In this document: positions 25,498 to 34,552 of the stretch, one piece after another
Layout: every line of letters starts with the position of its first letter
Position numbering within the stretch: the first letter of the stretch is position 1
Assembly: GCA_902570525.1 (NCBI GenBank)
Contig: CACFYN010000004.1
Coordinates: forward strand, 2,664 to 66,663
DNA: 64,000 bases
Direction of reading: 5' to 3'
Source: an uncultured Pelagibacteraceae bacterium
GTDB taxonomy: Bacteria; Pseudomonadota; Alphaproteobacteria; Pelagibacterales; Pelagibacteraceae
Translations under genes and position numbers: made by a program
Notes under the pieces: model-generated
The model's input: the letters and a program-made list of their open reading frames with translations, nothing else
Told to the model about the DNA's origin: nothing
The model's database searches: none

Positions 25498-26250
25498 TTA
25501 TTTTACTTTCAAAAAAGCAATGTCTGAGTCTTTTGTATTTCCTTTGTAGACATAAATTTTTTCAATAGTTTCAAATAAATATTTTTGTTCAGATTTTGAT
25601 AAGATATCGGATTTAAAATATTTTTTTTGTTTAATATTTTTTAAAATTTCATCAATATAAATCTCTTTATTGTTGGAATCATTTAGATATTTATAATATT
25701 TTGGTAAATTAAAATCTTCTATTATATAAAATCCACTTCGTTCAACATATTTAGTAAAAATAATAATATTTTTAATTATATGTGTAAGAATATGTGATCC
25801 ATCATCAATTATAATTTTAAATTTTTTTCCATAAATTTTATTACTAAGTTGTTCTAGACCTCTTTTAGTACTTATATCACATTGAATAAAATTAATATTT
25901 TTTGACTTATATTTAAATTTAAAGTTTTTATCTATGCCAAATATTTTTGCATTAGGAAAAAATTTACAAAATGATGCAGTCGATGCACCAAACCATGTAC
26001 CTATTTCTAATAGATTAAAGTTGGTATTTTTTAAAAAATTAAAATGATTTTCATAAAATTTAGAATACCCATGTCCTATAAAAATATCTAAGTTTTTATT
26101 ATACTGATTTCTTACTCTTTTAGCTTTATCGGTTCCATAATAAGTAAATAATTCATCTAAATTTTGATAAGTTAATTCCTCTTTGTCTATATTAATTTTT
26201 TTTTTAAAAATAAAAGCTACTCTTTTATAAAAATAAGTTAATAATTTCAT
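25498..26250 (-). CDS. Class I SAM-dependent (sugar O-)methyltransferase
   Basis: 'YGTDKA', 'HGYSKFYE', 'LLEIG', 'IIIDDGSH', 'YIIED'. Confidence 0.75.
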   Translation of the reverse strand: MKLLTYFYKRVAFIFKKKINIDKEELTYQNLDELFTYYGTDKAKRVRNQYNKNLDIFIGHGYSKFYENHFNFLKNTNFNLLEIGTWFGASTASFCKFFPNAKIFGIDKNFKFKYKSKNINFIQCDISTKRGLEQLSNKIYGKKFKIIIDDGSHILTHIIKNIIIFTKYVERSGFYIIEDFNLPKYYKYLNDSNNKEIYIDEILKNIKQKKYFKSDILSKSEQKYLFETIEKIYVYKGNTKDSDIAFLKVK

Positions 26251-26320
26251 TTACTATTCTGATATTTTTTATACTAAAGAATTAATTTATACTATTTTTT
26301 TTATCTCTGAGTCTAACTCT

Positions 26321-27061
26321 TTATGATTTAAAAAATAATTCGATATCTTCATCTAAAGGATTATTTCTCATATCAAGTTCATGTGGAAGTGTAGGTTCAT
26401 CACCAATAATAATTGGATTTCTTTCAAATGTTAATTCAATAACAGTTGGATCTCCAAAATTATCTTTAGGAGCAGAATTATTTGGATGAATATGAATTAA
26501 ATCTAAATTTAATTTACTACAAAAGTCTTGGATAGTATTTTTATGATAATCAAAATCATGAAACTCAATAACAATTCCATTAATTTTATTTTGATTTTTA
26601 ATTATTTCTTCTAGTATCCTATATTCTGAACCTTCTATATCTATTTTTAAGAAGATATCATCGTCTGTTTGAGAACTTTTTATAATTTTATTTAAATCAT
26701 TATAAAAAATTTTTTTTTGGTAAAAATTAATTTTTTTTTTTATAATTAAAAAATCAATTATATTTTTGAAGTATTTAAAAAAATAAAATCTACGATGGTA
26801 AGGTAAAAATAATAATTCAATTATTAATTTTTTAAGTAAATATTTTAATATATTTTTATCATCGTAACATTTTATGTTACATTTAGGATTTTGAGTTTTA
26901 AAGTCTTTTTCAAATTGCCAATTATCATTAATACCAAAACTAATTAAGATTTTAGACTTTAATAGTGAGTTTACACCAACCAGATATCCTCCGTCATTAT
27001 TTCCACCTAATCTGGATAATTTATAATTTTTTTTTGGTTTAAATATTTGTTCTATTGTCAT
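26321..27061 (-). CDS. FkbM/Methyltransf_22-like methyltransferase
   Basis: 'RLGGNNDGGY', 'SFGINDNWQFE', 'LKIDIEGSEY', 'IEFH', 'HIHPNN'. Confidence 0.75.
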   Translation of the reverse strand: MTIEQIFKPKKNYKLSRLGGNNDGGYLVGVNSLLKSKILISFGINDNWQFEKDFKTQNPKCNIKCYDDKNILKYLLKKLIIELLFLPYHRRFYFFKYFKNIIDFLIIKKKINFYQKKIFYNDLNKIIKSSQTDDDIFLKIDIEGSEYRILEEIIKNQNKINGIVIEFHDFDYHKNTIQDFCSKLNLDLIHIHPNNSAPKDNFGDPTVIELTFERNPIIIGDEPTLPHELDMRNNPLDEDIELFFKS

Positions 27062-27072
27062 AATTTATTTTG

Positions 27073-27089
27073 GAGTGGAGCTTTCTGTT
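27073..27089 (-). repeat. Degenerate third copy of the ssrA 3'-end sequence (possible older att scar)
   Basis: GAGTGGAGCTTTCTGTT matches 30075-30091 GAGAGGGGCGTTCTGTT at 14/17 positions. Confidence 0.45.
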
Positions 27090-27191
27090 TCTCGTCCCAT
27101 GATTAATAATATTCTAAATATAACTTTTTTTCAAAAACTTCGTGCTGTTCCTAATTTCAAAATAGAGTTGAATTAAAAGTTTCCTTTGTTA

Positions 27192-27217
27192 AGGGGCGTT
27201 CTGTTGCCAGGTGCCCC
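27192..27217 (-). repeat. Distal att-like direct repeat (duplicated 3' end of ssrA)
   Basis: AGGGGCGTTCTGTTGCCAGGTGCCCC is identical to 30078-30103; the match extends to 29/30 with the following (G/A)AAC. Confidence 0.92.
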
Positions 27218-27275
27218 GAACTTTCTAACGTTATTCGGGAATAATTTTAATTGAAAAGTCTAAAATTTGCTGCTC

Positions 27276-27293
27276 AGTGCGGTAATAGTGCGC
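27276..27293 (+). promoter_or_regulatory. Tandem AGTGCG(G/C) boxes, putative integrase arm-type sites (left end)
   Basis: AGTGCGG (27276-27282) and AGTGCGC (27287-27293), 11-bp period, 58 bp from the core repeat. Confidence 0.6.
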
Positions 27294-27297
27294 CCAA

Positions 27298-29172
27298 TTA
27301 TTCATCAATTATATTTTCAAAATTTTTATATCTTTCTGATAAATTAATAATGATTAATTTTTCTCTCACTCTTGTCATTGATGTGTACATCTTAAAGTCA
27401 AAATTTTTATCAGTTTTATACGGAATTAATATTATGATGTTTCTTCTTTCCCATCCTTTAAAACTATTGATAGTTGACATCTTTAATCTTCTATCACTAT
27501 CAAAAACATTAAAAATTTTTTTAGCATCTCTTTGCCTATCAGGATTTTTACTGAATATGTCAGAAATTTTTAAATTTTTATTTTTGAAATATTCTAAAAT
27601 ATGTTCTCTTAAATTAATTCCTTCGTCATGATCTGGAACAAGTATGGCAGTGTCAGAAAAGTCTAATTTTTGATTTTTGTCTAAATGATTTAACATTTCA
27701 CAAACCATATCTCTTGATTCAACAATATTATTCACATTTATCCATTTAGAAAGTGAATTAGGTTCAAAGGGGAGTGTATGTTGAGTATTAGTTTCTATAA
27801 TTGGATTTTCTTCGTCAGATTTAAAATCAGTCAGAAATTCATTAGAAAATTTATTTACTAAATTAATATGTTCATTTAATAGCCTATAACCCTTATTCAA
27901 TACACCCCAACGACCTGAACCAACTCCTGATATTTTAAATTTTTTGATTGAATATATATTTTGTTTGTCGTCAAATGCTATTAGCATTTCTCCATTTTGA
28001 CTTAAAAAATTTCTCAATAATTTAAACCATGTTTCTTTGAAATCTTGACCCTCATCAATTATAATTGCATCATAATTAGCGCTTAAGTTTCTATTTTCTA
28101 TTTTATCTCTAATAATTTTTTCTTTTTCTAATTCATCATTTTTTTGCATTGAACCTTCATCAGGATATTCAATATTTCTAAACTCTCTATATGCTTTACA
28201 AAAATCATGAAAATAAAAAATGTCTATATTTGTAGGATCAAAGTCGTATTTGGTACCTTCAATTTCTTTTTTTAAGTAGTTTTTTAAAGTTATATTATAG
28301 CAAATTACTAAAATTTTTTTTCCTAATTTTGCAAGACTAGCGGCTCTGATTGCTATGACTCGAGTTTTACCACTCCCAGCTACACCAGATAATTTTTGAA
28401 TAACACCTGGACGAGATATTATATATCTTTTTTGTTTATCATTTAAATCTCTCTCTGAAATTAAATTTTGGCCTTCAGAAATATGAAGAGGTGGTGAAAT
28501 CCAATTTTTAAATTTTGACAACCAATCTGTATTTGAATGGATTTTAATATTATTATTTATTAATGGTATAAATTGTTCAATTTTAACATTTTTATCTAAC
28601 ATATCTCTTCCAAAGACTGTACAACGATCAGGATTAAAATATTTAGGAATTCCAACAAAAGATTTTGCTTTTTGAGAAGAAATTATATTATGAAAATACA
28701 ATCCCGATTTTATTAATATATTTTTTCTTTTATCATTAAATATCTCTTCTTGAATTTCGTGAATCCCATCTATCATTCTTAATCTATATCCATCGGCTTT
28801 GTATACTGGGTTTATATTTGAAGTCCTTGTACCTTTTTCATCTTCAATAAAAACTTCCCATATCTTTTTTCCCTTTCTATTAATTTTTTCGCCACTTTTA
28901 TATTTCGGAAGATCTATCTGCCAATCTTTAATTTCAATTATCATTATTCCATGTCTTTTATTTGCAATAACAACATCGGGTGTCTGAGGACAAATATTTG
29001 AACCCCAGCGATTTCTTAATTCCGGTTTAGTATGAATAACCCATTCATTAGGCAATTTTGCATCAAGTTGTTTTGATAAATAATATTCACCTTTAGTGAA
29101 AGGTACTTTTAACTCATTGTTTTCAAATTTTTCTAATATTCCTAATGGAAGAATTCTTTTACTTACAGCCAT
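27298..29172 (-). CDS. NERD nuclease domain fused to a UvrD-like SF1 helicase (candidate defence protein)
   Basis: N-terminal 'GE...PDVVIANKRHGIMIIEIKDW' (PD-(D/E)xK NERD); Walker A 'GVAGSGKT'; Walker B 'IIDEGQDF'; 'TINSFKGWER'; 'YTSMTRVRE'. Confidence 0.85.
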   Translation of the reverse strand: MAVSKRILPLGILEKFENNELKVPFTKGEYYLSKQLDAKLPNEWVIHTKPELRNRWGSNICPQTPDVVIANKRHGIMIIEIKDWQIDLPKYKSGEKINRKGKKIWEVFIEDEKGTRTSNINPVYKADGYRLRMIDGIHEIQEEIFNDKRKNILIKSGLYFHNIISSQKAKSFVGIPKYFNPDRCTVFGRDMLDKNVKIEQFIPLINNNIKIHSNTDWLSKFKNWISPPLHISEGQNLISERDLNDKQKRYIISRPGVIQKLSGVAGSGKTRVIAIRAASLAKLGKKILVICYNITLKNYLKKEIEGTKYDFDPTNIDIFYFHDFCKAYREFRNIEYPDEGSMQKNDELEKEKIIRDKIENRNLSANYDAIIIDEGQDFKETWFKLLRNFLSQNGEMLIAFDDKQNIYSIKKFKISGVGSGRWGVLNKGYRLLNEHINLVNKFSNEFLTDFKSDEENPIIETNTQHTLPFEPNSLSKWINVNNIVESRDMVCEMLNHLDKNQKLDFSDTAILVPDHDEGINLREHILEYFKNKNLKISDIFSKNPDRQRDAKKIFNVFDSDRRLKMSTINSFKGWERRNIIILIPYKTDKNFDFKMYTSMTRVREKLIIINLSERYKNFENIIDE

Positions 29173-29222
29173 ATTATCATCATATTTGACTTATAATATT
29201 TTGTCATTTATAGAATTCTCGA

Positions 29223-29783
29223 ATGCTAAAATACATAAAATTTAGTCCTTACCTTTCATCGTTTGCACATTACACAACTACAATACCTCAGAAGTGGGTT
29301 AGCGATATTAAATATGTTGAATTTGATGAATTGCTTTCATCTTCGGTAGGAGCACTTGCTTTAGTTTTTAGATGGAAAGACTCCGAAAAAAATGAATTTA
29401 CAGAAATAGCTTCAGGAATGTTATCTTCAAGTTATGTTTATGGAGATCCTGTAGGAACAATTGCATCAATTGCAGCTCTTGGATATTCATATTCAAAAAC
29501 TAAAAATGAAGAAAGTTTCAGAAAATTCAAATGGGCAACTATAAGAGGTGCCACAGGAGTTGCTGCTTTTGCTTTATCTACAAAATTAATATCCATAACT
29601 ATTCTTAATGTTTTAATTGGAATTTGCGCAGCTGCTGTTGTTAGAAAAGTTGTAGGAATTTTAAGATTATGGGAATATAGACATTTTTTAAAAAATTTAA
29701 AAAAATATATACCTGTTCTTAAAAAAGAAATGTCGAGGAGAGAGTTCATTACTTTAAAAATGTTTACTTTCAAAAATGCTTGA
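29223..29783 (+). CDS. Hypothetical membrane protein (island cargo)
   Basis: 186-aa ORF with several Gly/Ala-rich hydrophobic helices; divergent from the helicase gene. Confidence 0.65.
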   Translation: MLKYIKFSPYLSSFAHYTTTIPQKWVSDIKYVEFDELLSSSVGALALVFRWKDSEKNEFTEIASGMLSSSYVYGDPVGTIASIAALGYSYSKTKNEESFRKFKWATIRGATGVAAFALSTKLISITILNVLIGICAAAVVRKVVGILRLWEYRHFLKNLKKYIPVLKKEMSRREFITLKMFTFKNA

Positions 29784-29834
29784 AGCATTAATTATTATCG
29801 AAATAGCAGCTTTAGCATGGTATCTTTCAAATAA

Positions 29835-30002
29835 ATGAATACAGCATTAACTATTATTGGTCTTGCAATGTTTATTTTTATTGTTGTTTTTAGTTTAAAA
29901 CGTGCAAAAGAAAAAAAGAAAGCTCAACAAGAAGAGCACGAAAAAATCAAAGCTTATGGCGAAAGCATAAACGAAGAAACTAGAAATAAAAAATCATTGT
30001 GA
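29835..30002 (+). CDS. Small single-pass membrane protein, 55 aa (island cargo)
   Basis: Hand-translated: MNTALTIIGLAMFIFIVVFSLKRAKEKKKAQQEEHEKIKAYGESINEETRNKKSL; TM helix plus charged tail; not in the ORF track. Confidence 0.65.
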   Translation: MNTALTIIGLAMFIFIVVFSLKRAKEKKKAQQEEHEKIKAYGESINEETRNKKSL

Positions 30003-30019
30003 GTGCGGCACCAGTGCGG
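30002..30019 (+). promoter_or_regulatory. Tandem AGTGCGG boxes, putative integrase arm-type sites (right end)
   Basis: AGTGCGG at 30002-30008 and 30013-30019, 11-bp period, 58 bp from the core repeat at 30078. Confidence 0.6.
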
Positions 30020-30075
30020 TCAAAAATGGTTTTGATTAAAATTATTAAAAAAGAACCTACAAAATATTAAATTAG

Positions 30076-30337
30076 AGAGGGGCGTTCTGTTGCCAGGTGC
30101 CCCAAACCCCGTAACTTAATTAAAGAATTAATTAAGCTGCAAGTGCAAATTTATTATTTGCAATTATAAAATTGCCCGTCACGGTGGAACAATTCCGAAC
30201 GAAAGAATAGCTTTTAGACATCCGTCGATCCTAATTCACCCCCAATTTGTTAAATTTGGTGGAGGTGGTGGGTACTGCCCCCACGTCCGCAATGTTTATT
30301 ACGAAATTCGTTTATCGTCATAGTTGGAAACCCAACA
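30076..30337 (-). ncRNA. ssrA: Circularly permuted two-piece tmRNA (alphaproteobacterial type); tag ANNKFALAA
   Basis: Acceptor piece ends CACCTCC-ACCA at 30257; 13-nt intervening segment; coding piece starts GGGGGTG at 30243 (7-bp stem with G3:U70); tag frame 30161-30132 reads ANNKFALAA*; 3' hairpin GGGGCACCTGGCAACAGAACGCCCC. Ends are approximate. Confidence 0.95.
30078..30103 (-). repeat. Proximal att-like direct repeat, the terminal hairpin of the tmRNA coding piece
   Basis: Identical to 27192-27217. Confidence 0.92.
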
Positions 30338-30342
30338 TATTT

Positions 30343-30371
30343 AATATAGTAATTAATATTTTTAATAACAA
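30343..30371 (-). promoter_or_regulatory. Putative ssrA promoter
   Basis: Minus strand TTGTTA - 17 bp - TATATT, just upstream of the 5' hairpin GTTGGGTTTCCAAC. Confidence 0.55.
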
Positions 30372-30391
30372 GTAATTTATATTTTGAAATA

Positions 30392-31624
30392 ATGCTCTCA
30401 AATAAAGACAAAAAATTTTTAGAGAAAATTATAAATAAACTAAGCAAATCAGACAATTTCAATAAAATTACTAATTATCCTTTACTAGAGAAAGGCTTTA
30501 CCAATGAGGATATTTATTCTGGAGCAGAAGTTTTGTTGAGTAAGAAAATTACTATGTCTAGCATCACAAAAAAATTTGAAAAAGCATTTGCAAAGTATGT
30601 TGGATCTAAATATGCACTAATGGTTAACTCTGGCTCATCTGCAAATCTCTTGTCGTCTTTCGCTCTATTAAATCCAAAAAAGAAAAATAGATTAAAATCT
30701 GGTGACACTTTTGTTATACCAGCTTTATGTTGGTCTACATCTCTCTGGCCTTTCGTTCAAGCGGGTCTGAAACCTAAATTTTTGGATGTTGATATAAAAA
30801 CATTCTGTTTAGATGATAAACTAGTTAAAAAAGAGAAAAATATTAAGGCAATTGTTAACTTACATATTTTAGGTAATTGCTCCAATATTTTAGAAATTCA
30901 CAACTATGCAAAAAAAAATAGACTTTTTTTAATTGAAGATACATGCGAGGCGTTAGGTTCTAAATATAAATCAAAATTCCTTGGTACATTTGGAGATTTT
31001 GGAACTTATTCATTTTACTATTCACATCAAATTACTTCTGGAGAAGGAGGTATGGTTGTTTGTAAAAGCAAAGAGGATTATGAATTAATTCATAGTATGA
31101 GAGCACATGGTTGGGATCGAGGTTTAACAAAAAAATATAAAAATAATTTTAATTTTATAAATTCAGGTTTTAATTTAAGACCATTAGATTTAACAGCAGC
31201 TATAGGATTGAGCCAGCTCAAAAGATTAAATAAAATGATAAAGGTTAGAGCCAAAAATAGAAAACTTTTAATAAATGCCCTAAAAAATTCAAATCATTGG
31301 AAAAATCAATTTACTTTCTTTGAACCGAATAATAATTTAAATCCAAGTTGGTTTGGTTTTCCGATATTAATAAACAACAAATATCTAAAAAATAAGCAAA
31401 AATATTTAAATTATCTAAACTTTAGTGGAGTTGAAACTAGGCCGATTTTAAGTGGTAACTTTTTAAACCAGCCTTCAGCAAGGCTGTATGGGTTTAATAA
31501 AAAAAATGAAAAATTTAAAAATTCGCAAGATATTGAGGATAGAGGTTTTTTTATAGGTTTACCTACAAAAGAAATTTCAATTTATACTCTTAAATTTTTA
31601 ACTGATAAATTATTAAAAATTTAA
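30392..31624 (+). CDS. DegT-superfamily PLP/PMP enzyme, ColD/RfbH-like sugar 3-dehydratase
   Basis: 'MVNSGSSANL', 'EDTCEALG'; His in place of the catalytic Lys in 'SFYYSHQITSGEGG'; 'RAHGWDR'. Confidence 0.8.
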   Translation: MLSNKDKKFLEKIINKLSKSDNFNKITNYPLLEKGFTNEDIYSGAEVLLSKKITMSSITKKFEKAFAKYVGSKYALMVNSGSSANLLSSFALLNPKKKNRLKSGDTFVIPALCWSTSLWPFVQAGLKPKFLDVDIKTFCLDDKLVKKEKNIKAIVNLHILGNCSNILEIHNYAKKNRLFLIEDTCEALGSKYKSKFLGTFGDFGTYSFYYSHQITSGEGGMVVCKSKEDYELIHSMRAHGWDRGLTKKYKNNFNFINSGFNLRPLDLTAAIGLSQLKRLNKMIKVRAKNRKLLINALKNSNHWKNQFTFFEPNNNLNPSWFGFPILINNKYLKNKQKYLNYLNFSGVETRPILSGNFLNQPSARLYGFNKKNEKFKNSQDIEDRGFFIGLPTKEISIYTLKFLTDKLLKI

Positions 31625-31626
31625 AA

Positions 31627-32442
31627 ATGATTAGATGTGGAATTACAGGTTTTAATGGTAACTTAGGAAAAACTTTTTTAAAGATTAACAGTAATTTACG
31701 TTTTATAAAATTTAAAGGAGATATAAGAAAAAAAAGAGAAGTTGAAAAATGGATAAAAAATAATGAGTTCGATTTAGTAGTTCATTTCGCAGCTTTAGTC
31801 CCTGTTTCTGTAGTAAATAAAAAATATAAAGATGCCATTAATGTTAATTATTTTGGAACAAAATATTTAGTCGATTCAATAATAAAATATAACAAAAAAA
31901 TCTCCTGGTTCTTTTTTTCATCAACTTCACATGTGTATCCTCACAAGAATTTTAAAATCAAAGAAAAACTAAAAGTCCAACCTTCATCTAAATATGGCAA
32001 AACGAAATTATTAGCTGAAAATTACATAATAAGAAAGTTAAGTCGTACAAATATTAAGTTTTGTATTGGCAGAATATTCAGTATTTTAGATAATAAGAAT
32101 AAGGATTTTTTTTTAGCGAGTTTATTAAAAAAAATTAATAATAAAAAAAAATTAATTTATTTAACAAACTTCAACCACAGAAGAGATTTTTTGACAACGG
32201 ATCAAATATCAAGGATTATTAGTCATCTTTGGAAAAAAAAAATATTTGGAATTATAAATATTGGTAGTGGTATTAAAATTGATCTACGAGATCTTGCAAC
32301 TTTTTTTGCAAAAAAAAAGAATAAAAAAGTTTCTTTTAATTACAATAAACCAACTTGTTTAGTTGCAGATATTTCAAAATTAAAAAAAACAGGTTTTAAA
32401 GTAAGAAAATTAAACTTAAAAAGATTTTCTAATTATATATAA
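31627..32442 (+). CDS. NAD-dependent epimerase/reductase (SDR)
   Basis: 'GITGFNGNLG', 'FSSTSHVY', YxxxK (YGKTK). Confidence 0.8.
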   Translation: MIRCGITGFNGNLGKTFLKINSNLRFIKFKGDIRKKREVEKWIKNNEFDLVVHFAALVPVSVVNKKYKDAINVNYFGTKYLVDSIIKYNKKISWFFFSSTSHVYPHKNFKIKEKLKVQPSSKYGKTKLLAENYIIRKLSRTNIKFCIGRIFSILDNKNKDFFLASLLKKINNKKKLIYLTNFNHRRDFLTTDQISRIISHLWKKKIFGIINIGSGIKIDLRDLATFFAKKKNKKVSFNYNKPTCLVADISKLKKTGFKVRKLNLKRFSNYI

Positions 32443-33132
32443 TTTAATTAATCCTAGAAAAGACTCTATAATTAGCTTAAGATTTACTGAACTTTCACCT
32501 CTAATCCTATTTTTAAAGACAGATCTTATTTCTCCTATTTTAAAACCACTTTTCCATAATATTAAAATAATTTCTGATAAAATAATAAAACCTCCCCCAG
32601 TATTTTTGCATTTTTTTATTATAGTCATAGCTGCCTCTTTTGAATAAAACCTATAACCATTTGTATAATCATAAACTGGAGCCTCTAGTAAAAATTTTGC
32701 TAATCTGTTTGAAAGTTTTGAGAGTATTCTTCTAGAAATAGGCCAGTTTATGATTTTACTTTTTGGCAAATATCTACTTCCGATCAATAATCCGAAAGAA
32801 TTTTTGTAAAAATAGGCAATATTTCTTTTTAATTCCCCAGGACTATGAGACATATCTGCATCCATCTCGATTAAGCAATTAACATCTTTTTTAATTTTTA
32901 ATAATTTTCTAAATCCAAAAATTACAGCTGATCCTCTCCCTAGTTTTTTTCCTCTGTGATAATATTTAACATTCTTAAATTTATTTTTACTAAGTAATTT
33001 TTTAGTATTTTGGTTTGTTGAGTCATCTACTATTAAAATAGGACAATTTATTCTTTTCGTTATTTGTTTAATAAGATTAATTATATTTTTATCTTCATTA
33101 AATGCTGGGATCACTATTCCAATTTTTTTCAT
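32416..33132 (-). CDS. GT2 polyprenol monophosphosugar synthase (DPM1-like)
   Basis: 'VIPAFNE', 'EMDADMSHSP', 'IGSRY', 'DYTNGYR', 'RIRGESS'. Confidence 0.88.
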   Translation of the reverse strand: MKKIGIVIPAFNEDKNIINLIKQITKRINCPILIVDDSTNQNTKKLLSKNKFKNVKYYHRGKKLGRGSAVIFGFRKLLKIKKDVNCLIEMDADMSHSPGELKRNIAYFYKNSFGLLIGSRYLPKSKIINWPISRRILSKLSNRLAKFLLEAPVYDYTNGYRFYSKEAAMTIIKKCKNTGGGFIILSEIILILWKSGFKIGEIRSVFKNRIRGESSVNLKLIIESFLGLIKLYIIRKSF

Positions 33133-33601: not shown

Positions 33602-34552
33602 ATGAAATTAACAAAAGAACAACAGCAAGAAATTAAAGATCTTCAGTCGCAAGAAAATAAAACCAAGAGGGTTATTGCTCCCGAGCTTGAGAAAGTTTTA
33701 TTTGAGGCTATTCCAATTTTAGACCATGGTTTTGTTCGAGTAATTGATTATATGGGTGATGACACATCAATTGTACAAGCAGCTAGAGTTTCATATGGCA
33801 AAGGAACAAAAAAAGTATCAACAGATTCAGGGCTAATTAAATATTTAATGAGGCATTGGCATAGTACACCTTTTGAAATGTGTGAAATTAAATATCACAT
33901 TAAACTTCCAATTTTTATTGCAAGACAATGGATAAGACACAGGACTGCAAATGTAAATGAATATTCTGCAAGATATTCTATTCTTGATAAAGAATTTTAC
34001 TTACCTTCACAAGAAAACTTAGCAGCACAGTCAAAAAATAACAGACAAGGCAGAGGTGAAATAATTAGTGGAGAGCAAGCAAAAGAAATTTTAAACTTAT
34101 TAAAGACTGACGCTGAGAGAACATATGATAATTACGAGACAATGTTAAATGAAAAATATGATGGATCAGTAATTGATGAGAAAAAATCCGGTTTGGCAAG
34201 AGAACTTGCAAGAATGAACTTAACTTTAAACACATATACGCAATGGTATTGGAAAACAGACTTACTTAATTTAATGAACTTTTTAAGACTAAGAGCAGAT
34301 AGTCATGCACAATACGAAATAAGAGCTTACGCCGATGTTATGTTAGATACTCTTAAAAAATGGGTTCCTATAACTTATGATGCTTTTATGGATTATAGAG
34401 TTGGTGGAACAGAAGTGTCATCAAAAGGTAAATTTGTAATTAGACAATTACTTGAGGGAAAAGATCCAAAACTTGAGGAGTCAGGATTATCAAAAAGAGA
34501 ATGGAACGAGCTAATGAGTGCTTTTAATTTGAAGAAAAAAATATTAGAGTAA
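33602..34552 (+). CDS. thyX: FAD-dependent thymidylate synthase
   Basis: 'AARVSY', 'HSTPFE', '[18 protein letters not shown]'. Confidence 0.97.

Follow-up and report, generated by a model that had tools for sequence, protein, structure and literature searches.

Heterobivalent tyrosine integrases of the lambda/HP1/Tn916 type act at attachment (att) sites that combine a core with arm-type sites. Integrative elements lacking a recombinase are known from the ssrA islands of Dehalococcoides, 15 of 31 of which carry none; mobilisation of these by neighbouring elements or by newly arriving ones was proposed (McMurdie et al. 2011, PMC3146451). Virion-encapsidated integrative mobile elements (VEIMEs) were reported from Pelagibacter (Eppley et al. 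2022, PMC9618062), and PMC10872708 cites the tycheposons of Prochlorococcus and describes tRNA-Lys islands of Ca. Methylopumilus in which repeats of the tRNA end separate inserted cassettes. For the gMED islands of SAR11, the available part of PMC11796062 gives partial tRNA repeats at four tRNA-linked islands and one island bordering the transfer-messenger RNA (tmRNA). Here, we analysed a stretch of 64,000 nucleotides from an uncultured Pelagibacteraceae bacterium (contig CACFYN010000004.1; this whole stretch is called the window, and positions are counted from its first letter). It contains a 2886-bp unit at the 3' end of the tmRNA gene that is best read as a cassette mobilised in trans by the integrases of satellite elements.

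The unit is bounded by an exact 26-bp direct repeat (27192-27217 and 30078-30103, plus strand), and no further copy with up to 3 mismatches was found within the window (0 expected from 100 shuffles). The repeated core corresponds to the last 26 nt of the tmRNA gene, which form the terminal hairpin of its coding piece. The integration target itself, a two-piece (permuted) alphaproteobacterial tmRNA gene on the minus strand (30076-30375), is intact; it matched Rfam RF01849 at full length (30375 to 30076, model positions 1-355, 238 bits, E = 1.3e-68) and was called by ARAGORN as a permuted tmRNA with the tag ANNKFALAA. The tmRNA-proximal core copy (30078-30103) lies at the end of the Rfam alignment (30077/30076), and the distal copy (27192-27217) is a displaced duplicate of the tmRNA 3' end, so that the unit abuts an intact target RNA gene, a fragment of which stands as an exact repeat 2886 bp away. 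Between the two copies lie 2860 bp with three open reading frames (ORFs) and no recombinase. The repeat and its position at the tmRNA 3' end had been pointed out in a sequence-only reading, a first inspection made before any search; both were confirmed by repeat search, Rfam and ARAGORN, and the arithmetic of the excised circle predicted there, 2886 bp, is correct. A chance match or an assembly artefact was considered for the repeat and dropped, given the exact 26-mer and the recurring architecture.

Each core copy is accompanied by a pair of short boxes of the form AGTGCGG-N4-AGTGCG (27276-27292 and 30002-30018). The pattern occurs nowhere else in the window (0.01 expected), each pair is 58 bp from its own core copy, and the left and right pairs have the same orientation. 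The left pair consists of AGTGCGGT and AGTGCGCC (27276-27294, plus strand) and the right pair of AGTGCGGC and AGTGCGGT (30002-30019, plus strand), each with a start-to-start distance of 11 bp; both are putative arm-type integrase sites. A 41-bp arm, here called type A, adjoins the distal core (27218-27258, plus strand); it is conserved across Pelagibacter cassettes and contains a 16-bp palindrome (27230-27245) that is imperfect in the window. On the opposite side, the segment from the right boxes to the tmRNA-proximal core (30020-30077, plus strand) is 82-87% identical to that of AGTGCGG-class cassettes with other cargo (L242, L245, L252 and L253). The cargo is packed against these motifs, as the first inspection had noted: the stop codon of the helicase gene (27298-27300) is only 4-5 bp from the left pair, and that of the small ORF shares one base with the right pair.

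The same architecture recurs in Pelagibacter. The core was present in 29 of 36 same-genus genomes and in 2-6 copies in 16 of the 36, the copies often being 0.34-3.4 kb apart, and genomes of the neighbouring family contained none. A search with the core and arm pattern among 185,579 species genomes gave 40 further loci, all from Pelagibacteraceae or Pelagibacter and mostly from single-cell genomes; no integrase gene is encoded at any of them. The cassettes measure 0.34-3.7 kb and carry one to three cargo genes. From the distal end they are built of the core, the 41-bp arm with its 16-bp palindrome, about 17 variable bp and a pair of 7-9-bp boxes with the 11-bp start-to-start distance, often followed by an extended -10-like element (TGnTAnnnT), an ATG and the cargo; at the far end, the same box pair is repeated 66 or 75-79 bp before the next core. 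Among 43 type-A left ends from different Pelagibacter genomes, mean pairwise identity was 97% in the core, 93% in the arm and 33-35% in the flanks. Nearly all type-A cassettes have a period-11 box pair at the position of the window's left pair. At least seven box classes were distinguished (TCCCGTAC, TGTGCCA, AGTGCG-N, TTCCGTC, GACGCCA, TACGCCA, GCCGAC and GGACGAG). The boxes were alike at both ends of one cassette in 24 of 35 type-A cassettes by a strict automatic test and in a few more by eye; such matched pairs, about +58 from the distal core and 66-79 bp ahead of the next core, were found in about two-thirds of type A, and the class differs between adjacent cassettes of one array. The family cargo includes nuclease-like proteins (McrB_N/NOV_C, GIY-YIG and DUF3427/NOV_C), a trypsin-like peptidase and many small secreted or membrane proteins.

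Two variants of this organization were observed in addition. At locus L034 (G030:C12:55944-62977), a variant core that differs by two loop substitutions is repeated five times in tandem. The copies have conserved flanks of their own to the left and right and matched box pairs, and no tmRNA gene lies within 18 kb; the array represents a diverged sub-family of the system, in a different Pelagibacter lineage. At the metagenome contig L245 (MDTG01357196.1, 2467-2560), two different box pairs directly succeed each other after a type-A arm, the first of the TGCGCCC class and the second, AGTGCGGT-AAT-AGTGCGGT, nearly identical to the window's left pair. This double pair could be a cargo-less cassette remnant or a product of recombination between classes.

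The -10-like element just past the boxes, with an ATG at +127 to +146, was found in 30 of 43 cassettes, and the left boxes thereby sit where a -35 element or an operator would. This would fit an integron-like platform on which a host recombinase (XerC/D or an unrecognised one) acts on the palindromic 41-bp arm and the boxes serve as promoter operators. Such a platform would also suit the type-A arms, which are specific to cassettes and not found in satellites, and the Xer-type gene, which is the sole tyrosine recombinase in most of the genomes. We regard it as very unlikely, however, since box pairs are found likewise at the other, promoter-less end of cassettes, where their distance from the core is fixed, and next to the int genes of satellites. 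Moreover, several box classes are present in one genome, which the few regulators of a streamlined host could hardly serve, and no dif-like relation was shown, the pattern search having matched as many sites as its reversed control (noise).

Identical cassettes were found in different surroundings. A 709-bp cassette present in four genomes has four different left neighbours; three copies are at the tmRNA gene and the fourth is at a non-tmRNA junction, with a right flank resembling that of the secondary-site junction in L036. A 342-bp unit is at the tmRNA gene in L035 and at a non-tmRNA junction in L036, and the neighbours of a 572-582-bp unit differ between L093 and L238. The right end of the window's own cassette (29993-30102) was recovered on the metagenome contig L238 over 110 bp at 100% identity, after which that contig continues with another mini-cassette in place of the tmRNA gene. 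In genome G010 (L044, 6712-6799), a match to window positions 27134-27220 shows the flank, with three tandem ACTTCGTG boxes, joined directly to the core and the tmRNA gene. Judged by this alignment, the junction is the unoccupied arrangement of the window's site.

The flank in question is a relic of the tmRNA-proximal end of an older cassette (27065-27191, plus strand; matches in G010 and G036) and is the DNA against which the present cassette was inserted. Within it, a stretch near 27074-27100 resembles the core in degenerate form and one ACTTCGTG box lies near 27137-27146; positions 27065-27144 were found again within islands of G010 and G036. As this is the eroded end of an older cassette, insertion at the locus was serial. 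Farther out (25498-27061) are two methyltransferase-like genes (FkbM-type and Methyltransf_24; GC 0.18-0.21), located between conserved fumarase/MazG-like genes and the relic; they are probably the cargo of older insertions whose distal core has decayed. On the other side of the locus (30392-33132), about 3.2 kb with a DegT-type aminotransferase, an NAD-dependent epimerase and a 238-aa ORF is interposed. In eight relatives, the gene at 33602-34552 of the window directly adjoins the 5' side of the tmRNA gene, so this side is variable too, and no repeat was seen there.

Integrase-bearing elements with the same core provide candidate helpers. Genome G202 carries, between two cores at the tmRNA gene, a 6.2-kb element with a 343-aa tyrosine integrase adjoining the tmRNA gene and a D5-like primase. 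This element, at the same position as the window's cassette, would be compatible with a one-off origin of the latter, in which a full 6-kb satellite recently lost its interior in this lineage alone and the remnant only happens to resemble others. We consider such an origin highly improbable, because the distal arm of the cassette is the family type of 40+ loci and not the satellite type, and because no satellite gene fragment (int, primase) was detectable in the cassette or the source genome. A one-off deletion remnant with decaying ends was what the sequence-only reading had named as the outcome that would speak against it; the relatives form a recurrent class instead.

The G202 integrase has 588 metagenome homologues at E ≤ 1e-20. 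Small circular elements of this kind are abundant in marine metagenomes. The integrase-bearing contigs are 4.6-6.5 kb long, with a gene order that is circularly permuted between samples; some are terminally redundant (L225 and L231) and others are concatemers (L277, L281 and L282), which is consistent with free circular or packaged satellite DNA. They encode the integrase, a replicase (DUF5906, AAA_25 or Prim-Pol) and often a small terminase (Terminase_2). Every satellite contig looked up carries the SAR11 tmRNA core. Boxes are present on both sides of this core: a period-11 pair immediately ahead of the int start codon precedes it by about 75 bp, and similar boxes follow it at about 95 bp. 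The distance from pair start to core, about 75-79 bp, is the same in the window's right pair and in the int-side pair of satellites. Satellites joined to a SAR11 tmRNA gene were found (L233 and L234), and the satellite box classes are those of cassettes (GACGCCA, TTCCGTC, TACGTCA and AGTGCG-N). A metagenome scan with the window's box type gave three satellite variants of the AGTGCG-N class, AGTGCGTAC, AGTGCGATC and AGTGCGCC. Compared with the satellites, the window's cassette has an identical core and, in its tmRNA-proximal arm, box pairs of equal geometry and related class; its distal arm is of a cassette-specific type.

The N-terminus of the candidate helper integrase was predicted to fold into three strands and a helix (pLDDT about 89), and this strand-strand-strand-helix order, as modelled, is that of known arm-binding domains. 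Between integrase groups, the N-terminus is less conserved than the remainder of the protein (32-41% compared with 55-62%). A Foldseek search of the domain against the PDB returned nothing at E ≤ 0.001, and its match to Pfam Arm-DNA-bind_2 was weak (E = 0.11-0.26).

A second site was encountered next to fabI. A look-alike core adjoins fabI in G018, G034, G017 and G277, and satellites were found at the look-alike site near fabI as well (L232, L235 and L236, compared with L267). In G277, a cassette of 1287 bp that has AGTGCGGT boxes and different cargo, and whose arm shares 86% identity with the tmRNA-proximal arm of the window, lies between fabI and a 490-aa gene; among 400 genus genomes, G277 alone has the exact P'-arm pattern of the window. 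As it hosts both cassettes and integrase-bearing elements, the fabI-adjacent core looks like a second chromosomal landing site. A third core copy with 2 mismatches was noted in G000 (contig C1:103826-103850; L004, 1501-1525), directly after fabI and a 50-aa ORF; it is succeeded by what resembles the start of a cassette arm and by low-GC DNA with an ORF for a 365-aa membrane protein. This copy was also considered as the far end of one giant island, an idea that was dropped in favour of a separate look-alike site by fabI.

We estimate the probability that satellite integrases mobilise the window's cassette in trans at about 0.65. This is the best reading on the grounds that circular integrase elements share with the cassettes the core, the box classes, the geometry and the SAR11 tmRNA target. 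The non-autonomous cassette served in trans that the sequence-only reading had proposed is supported by the end-matched family, its varied contexts and the integrase circles with the same core and boxes. The mechanism of movement, which we infer from these comparisons, would run as follows. The 2886-bp unit would be a non-autonomous integrative cassette that has kept only the cis-acting sites of a site-specific recombination system, the target of which is the hairpin closing the SAR11 tmRNA gene at its 3' end. Its boxes would be recognised as arm-type sites by a heterobivalent (lambda/Tn916-like) tyrosine integrase through its N-terminal domain; this enzyme would be supplied in trans once a satellite-like element of matching box class enters or resides in the cell. 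The integrase would excise the cassette as a 2886-bp circle, to be reinserted at the tmRNA core or at the look-alike core by fabI. Transfer from cell to cell would probably use the satellite's own route, by phage particles or vesicles.

Several observations weigh against this reading. The full 2860-bp cargo was found by DNA search in none of 400 other genus genomes, and the evidence for movement of the window's own cassette is accordingly one 110-bp metagenome match, which could in principle be a mis-join at the repeat. Of the circles and empty sites envisaged in the sequence-only reading, one unoccupied junction was recovered, in G010, in a comparison between species and not between strains, and no circle junction of the window's cassette was seen. 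Integrases next to the same att site had likewise been anticipated; those found have the same core and geometry and a related box class, and no integrase-bearing element with exact AGTGCGGT boxes was identified, including among 17 metagenome matches. The cassette-type 41-bp palindromic arm was present in none of about 25 satellite contigs examined, the distal arm of satellites being about 37 bp longer and of different sequence. VIA-align of the integrase N-domain gave Z 4.9 for AP2/GCC-box and Z 4.1 for the Tn916 Int N-domain, both within the noise band. In IMG/VR, neither the core with arm start nor the type-A arm had any match (0 each), and core, arm and boxes found no match by blastn in 50,697 GenBank phages. 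The core with AGTGCGG pairs and other cargo, a search for which the first inspection had proposed, was recovered from Pelagibacter genomes and metagenomes and not from these two collections. Finally, the window's left boxes lack the usual promoter-like module behind them, the helicase gene being oriented the other way there, and one of these boxes is deviant (AGTGCGCC); the window's unit may thus be rearranged.

Three of these points, namely the lack of a helper with the exact boxes or arm type, the uniqueness of the whole cassette among 401 genomes and the rearranged look of its left end, count for a fossil cassette that was inserted once and is now fixed, with reshuffling by RecA-type homologous recombination or transformation only. 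The 66 bp of conserved core and arm would then serve as portable homology. In the same direction, Pelagibacter is nearly free of integrases, the matches in 251 genus genomes being almost all of the 325-aa Xer type, and homologous replacement at fixed positions was favoured for SAR11 variable genes (bioRxiv 10.64898/2026.10.07.757358). Homologous recombination does not, however, explain why four boxes are alike within a cassette and unlike in its neighbours, nor why a 41-bp arm is retained at 93% identity across species. The same cassettes also occur at two unlinked sites with only the core in common, and the repeats of the window are exact. We therefore consider a fossil cassette unlikely and retain mobilisation in trans by satellite integrases.

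Regarding the cargo, the first gene (27298-29172, minus strand) encodes a 624-aa protein with a NERD-like nuclease domain and a UvrD/SF1 helicase. It matched the PADLOC family PDLC01087 'NERD+UvrD' at full length (E = 1.6e-71; residues 19-610 against profile positions 9-543 of 559) and, in Pfam, UvrD-helicase (2.2e-12), AAA_19 (4.3e-9) and an N-terminal NERD domain (0.0036, below the cut-off). By these profile matches, it is a candidate single-gene phage-defence protein; the defence function ascribed to the cargo at the outset agrees with PDLC01087, a candidate family and the one match to speak for it. The second gene (29223-29783, plus strand) encodes a 186-aa protein with hydrophobic segments and no family match in Pfam, PHROGs or PADLOC. 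The third (29835-30002, plus strand) encodes a 55-aa protein with one predicted membrane helix and weak matches only, to transmembrane-segment families. Both of these smaller products are read as membrane proteins. None of the three ORFs matched integrase, transposase, replication or capsid families in these three collections, which bears out the cargo content first described.

Within the 400 genus genomes, only the right-hand module of the window's cassette DNA, with the genes for the 186-aa and 55-aa proteins, recurs. The two genes were found together at 90-94% DNA identity in G136, G247 and G133, and the 55-aa gene also within a different, TTCCG-class cassette at the tmRNA gene of G282. The 186-aa gene is next to a helicase homologue in G024, at 66% identity. 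On contig C12 of that genome (L263, 1143-3543), the copies of the helicase and 186-aa genes are 66-67% identical to those of the window and have the same relative arrangement, with no cores within 1.5 kb; these two genes may form a two-gene functional module. The source genome assembly comprises 722 kb in 38 contigs and is 65% complete. It contains one PF00589 match, a 317-aa Xer-like gene on another contig (C5), and satellite integrases searched by tblastn matched nothing else in this genome.

Published pelagiphage integration sites are at tRNA-Cys, tRNA-Leu and tRNA-Arg and not at tmRNA. In IMG/VR, the palindrome alone had 8 matches, all unrelated, and the AGTGCGG pair alone at least 119, which were unspecific and none of them with a core. 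The core alone matched 8 contigs (L050-L057), which contain tmRNA genes of other, GC-richer bacteria. In these contigs, the tmRNA gene ends in the same 25-bp core, and the DNA immediately next to it looks foreign and is classed as viral by IMG/VR; integration at the terminal hairpin of two-piece tmRNA may accordingly not be confined to SAR11. Satellite integrases found no match in these contigs by tblastn.

SAR11 is the most abundant bacterial lineage in the sea, and its large pangenome is usually described as being without canonical mobile elements and is explained by homologous recombination. Mini-cassettes without a recombinase, which form a widespread family and whose ends correspond class by class to the docking sites of abundant satellite integrases, offer a concrete and testable route for the gain and loss of single genes in this lineage; genes for candidate phage-defence proteins and for surface or secreted ones are among those concerned. 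The finding connects phage, satellite and cassette as three layers, and the box code, which combines several classes with one core, may represent a natural case of modular arm-recognition retargeting in tyrosine integrases. More tentatively, it is possible, though we would not yet favour it, that SAR11 runs an integron-like gene capture with two landing pads, one core, promoter-bearing cassettes and a four-copy box code for each class of satellite integrase. If so, different satellites would selectively pick up and deliver different subsets of host cassettes as a third tier of hitch-hiking (cassette on satellite on phage), and a large part of the small-scale flexible genome would have its source here, in a lineage considered free of mobile elements. 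The core, the 41-bp arm and the box classes are defined sequences for PCR, read-mapping and in-vitro recombination tests.

Compared with known systems, the SAR11 cassettes resemble the Dehalococcoides islands and cis-mobilizable elements (CIMEs) in that units stand in tandem after the tmRNA gene and are each delimited by directly repeated copies of the gene's 3' end (PMC3146451). Those islands are typically several kb long and use a serine recombinase (DsiB) and the T-loop of a one-piece tmRNA (PMC3146451), whereas the SAR11 cassettes are 0.34-3.7 kb long with one to three genes, use the coding-piece hairpin of a two-piece tmRNA, and have candidate tyrosine integrases, class-coded box pairs and a conserved arm of their own. 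Their organization is similar to the att sites of lambda, HP1 and Tn916 in that the core is common to element and target, that each arm bears short direct repeats at a distance of about 60-80 bp, and that the candidate integrases have a small predicted N-terminal strand-strand-strand-helix domain; they differ in that at least seven putative arm-site classes are combined with one core and that the element itself has no integrase. An autonomous island of the Islander type likewise has an intact target and a displaced fragment, but it carries the integrase that the window's unit lacks.

The 4.6-6.5-kb circles with integrase, replicase and small terminase fit the description of VEIMEs (PMC9618062) and tycheposons, and the integrase probably comes from such VEIME-like circles. 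Their hallmark genes (tyrosine recombinase, replicase and packaging) are all missing from the window's cassette, which would be a passenger rather than a member. With the additive flexible islands it has in common that, in streamlined planktonic bacteria, the last ~20 bp of an RNA gene recurs between inserted cassettes among which mobile-element genes are not seen; the available parts of the two sources describe the repeats alone and do not mention arms, box classes or a helper (PMC10872708, PMC11796062). The outcome is similar to that of a mobile integron with its attC sites, in that arrays of tiny, mostly single-gene units without a recombinase are added to at one end. Unlike an integron, the SAR11 system has no IntI and no folded site of the attC type, no integrase gene was found near the window's array, the site consists of an RNA-gene end and a conserved arm, and many cassettes carry their own promoter-like element. 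Integrase-less ssrA islands and cis-mobilizable elements are thus already known. In the literature searched, the miniature size, the hairpin target in a two-piece tmRNA with a second look-alike site, the cassette-specific conserved arm with its built-in promoter-like element, and the class-coded, end-matched box pairs in common with satellite integrase sites appear to be undescribed.

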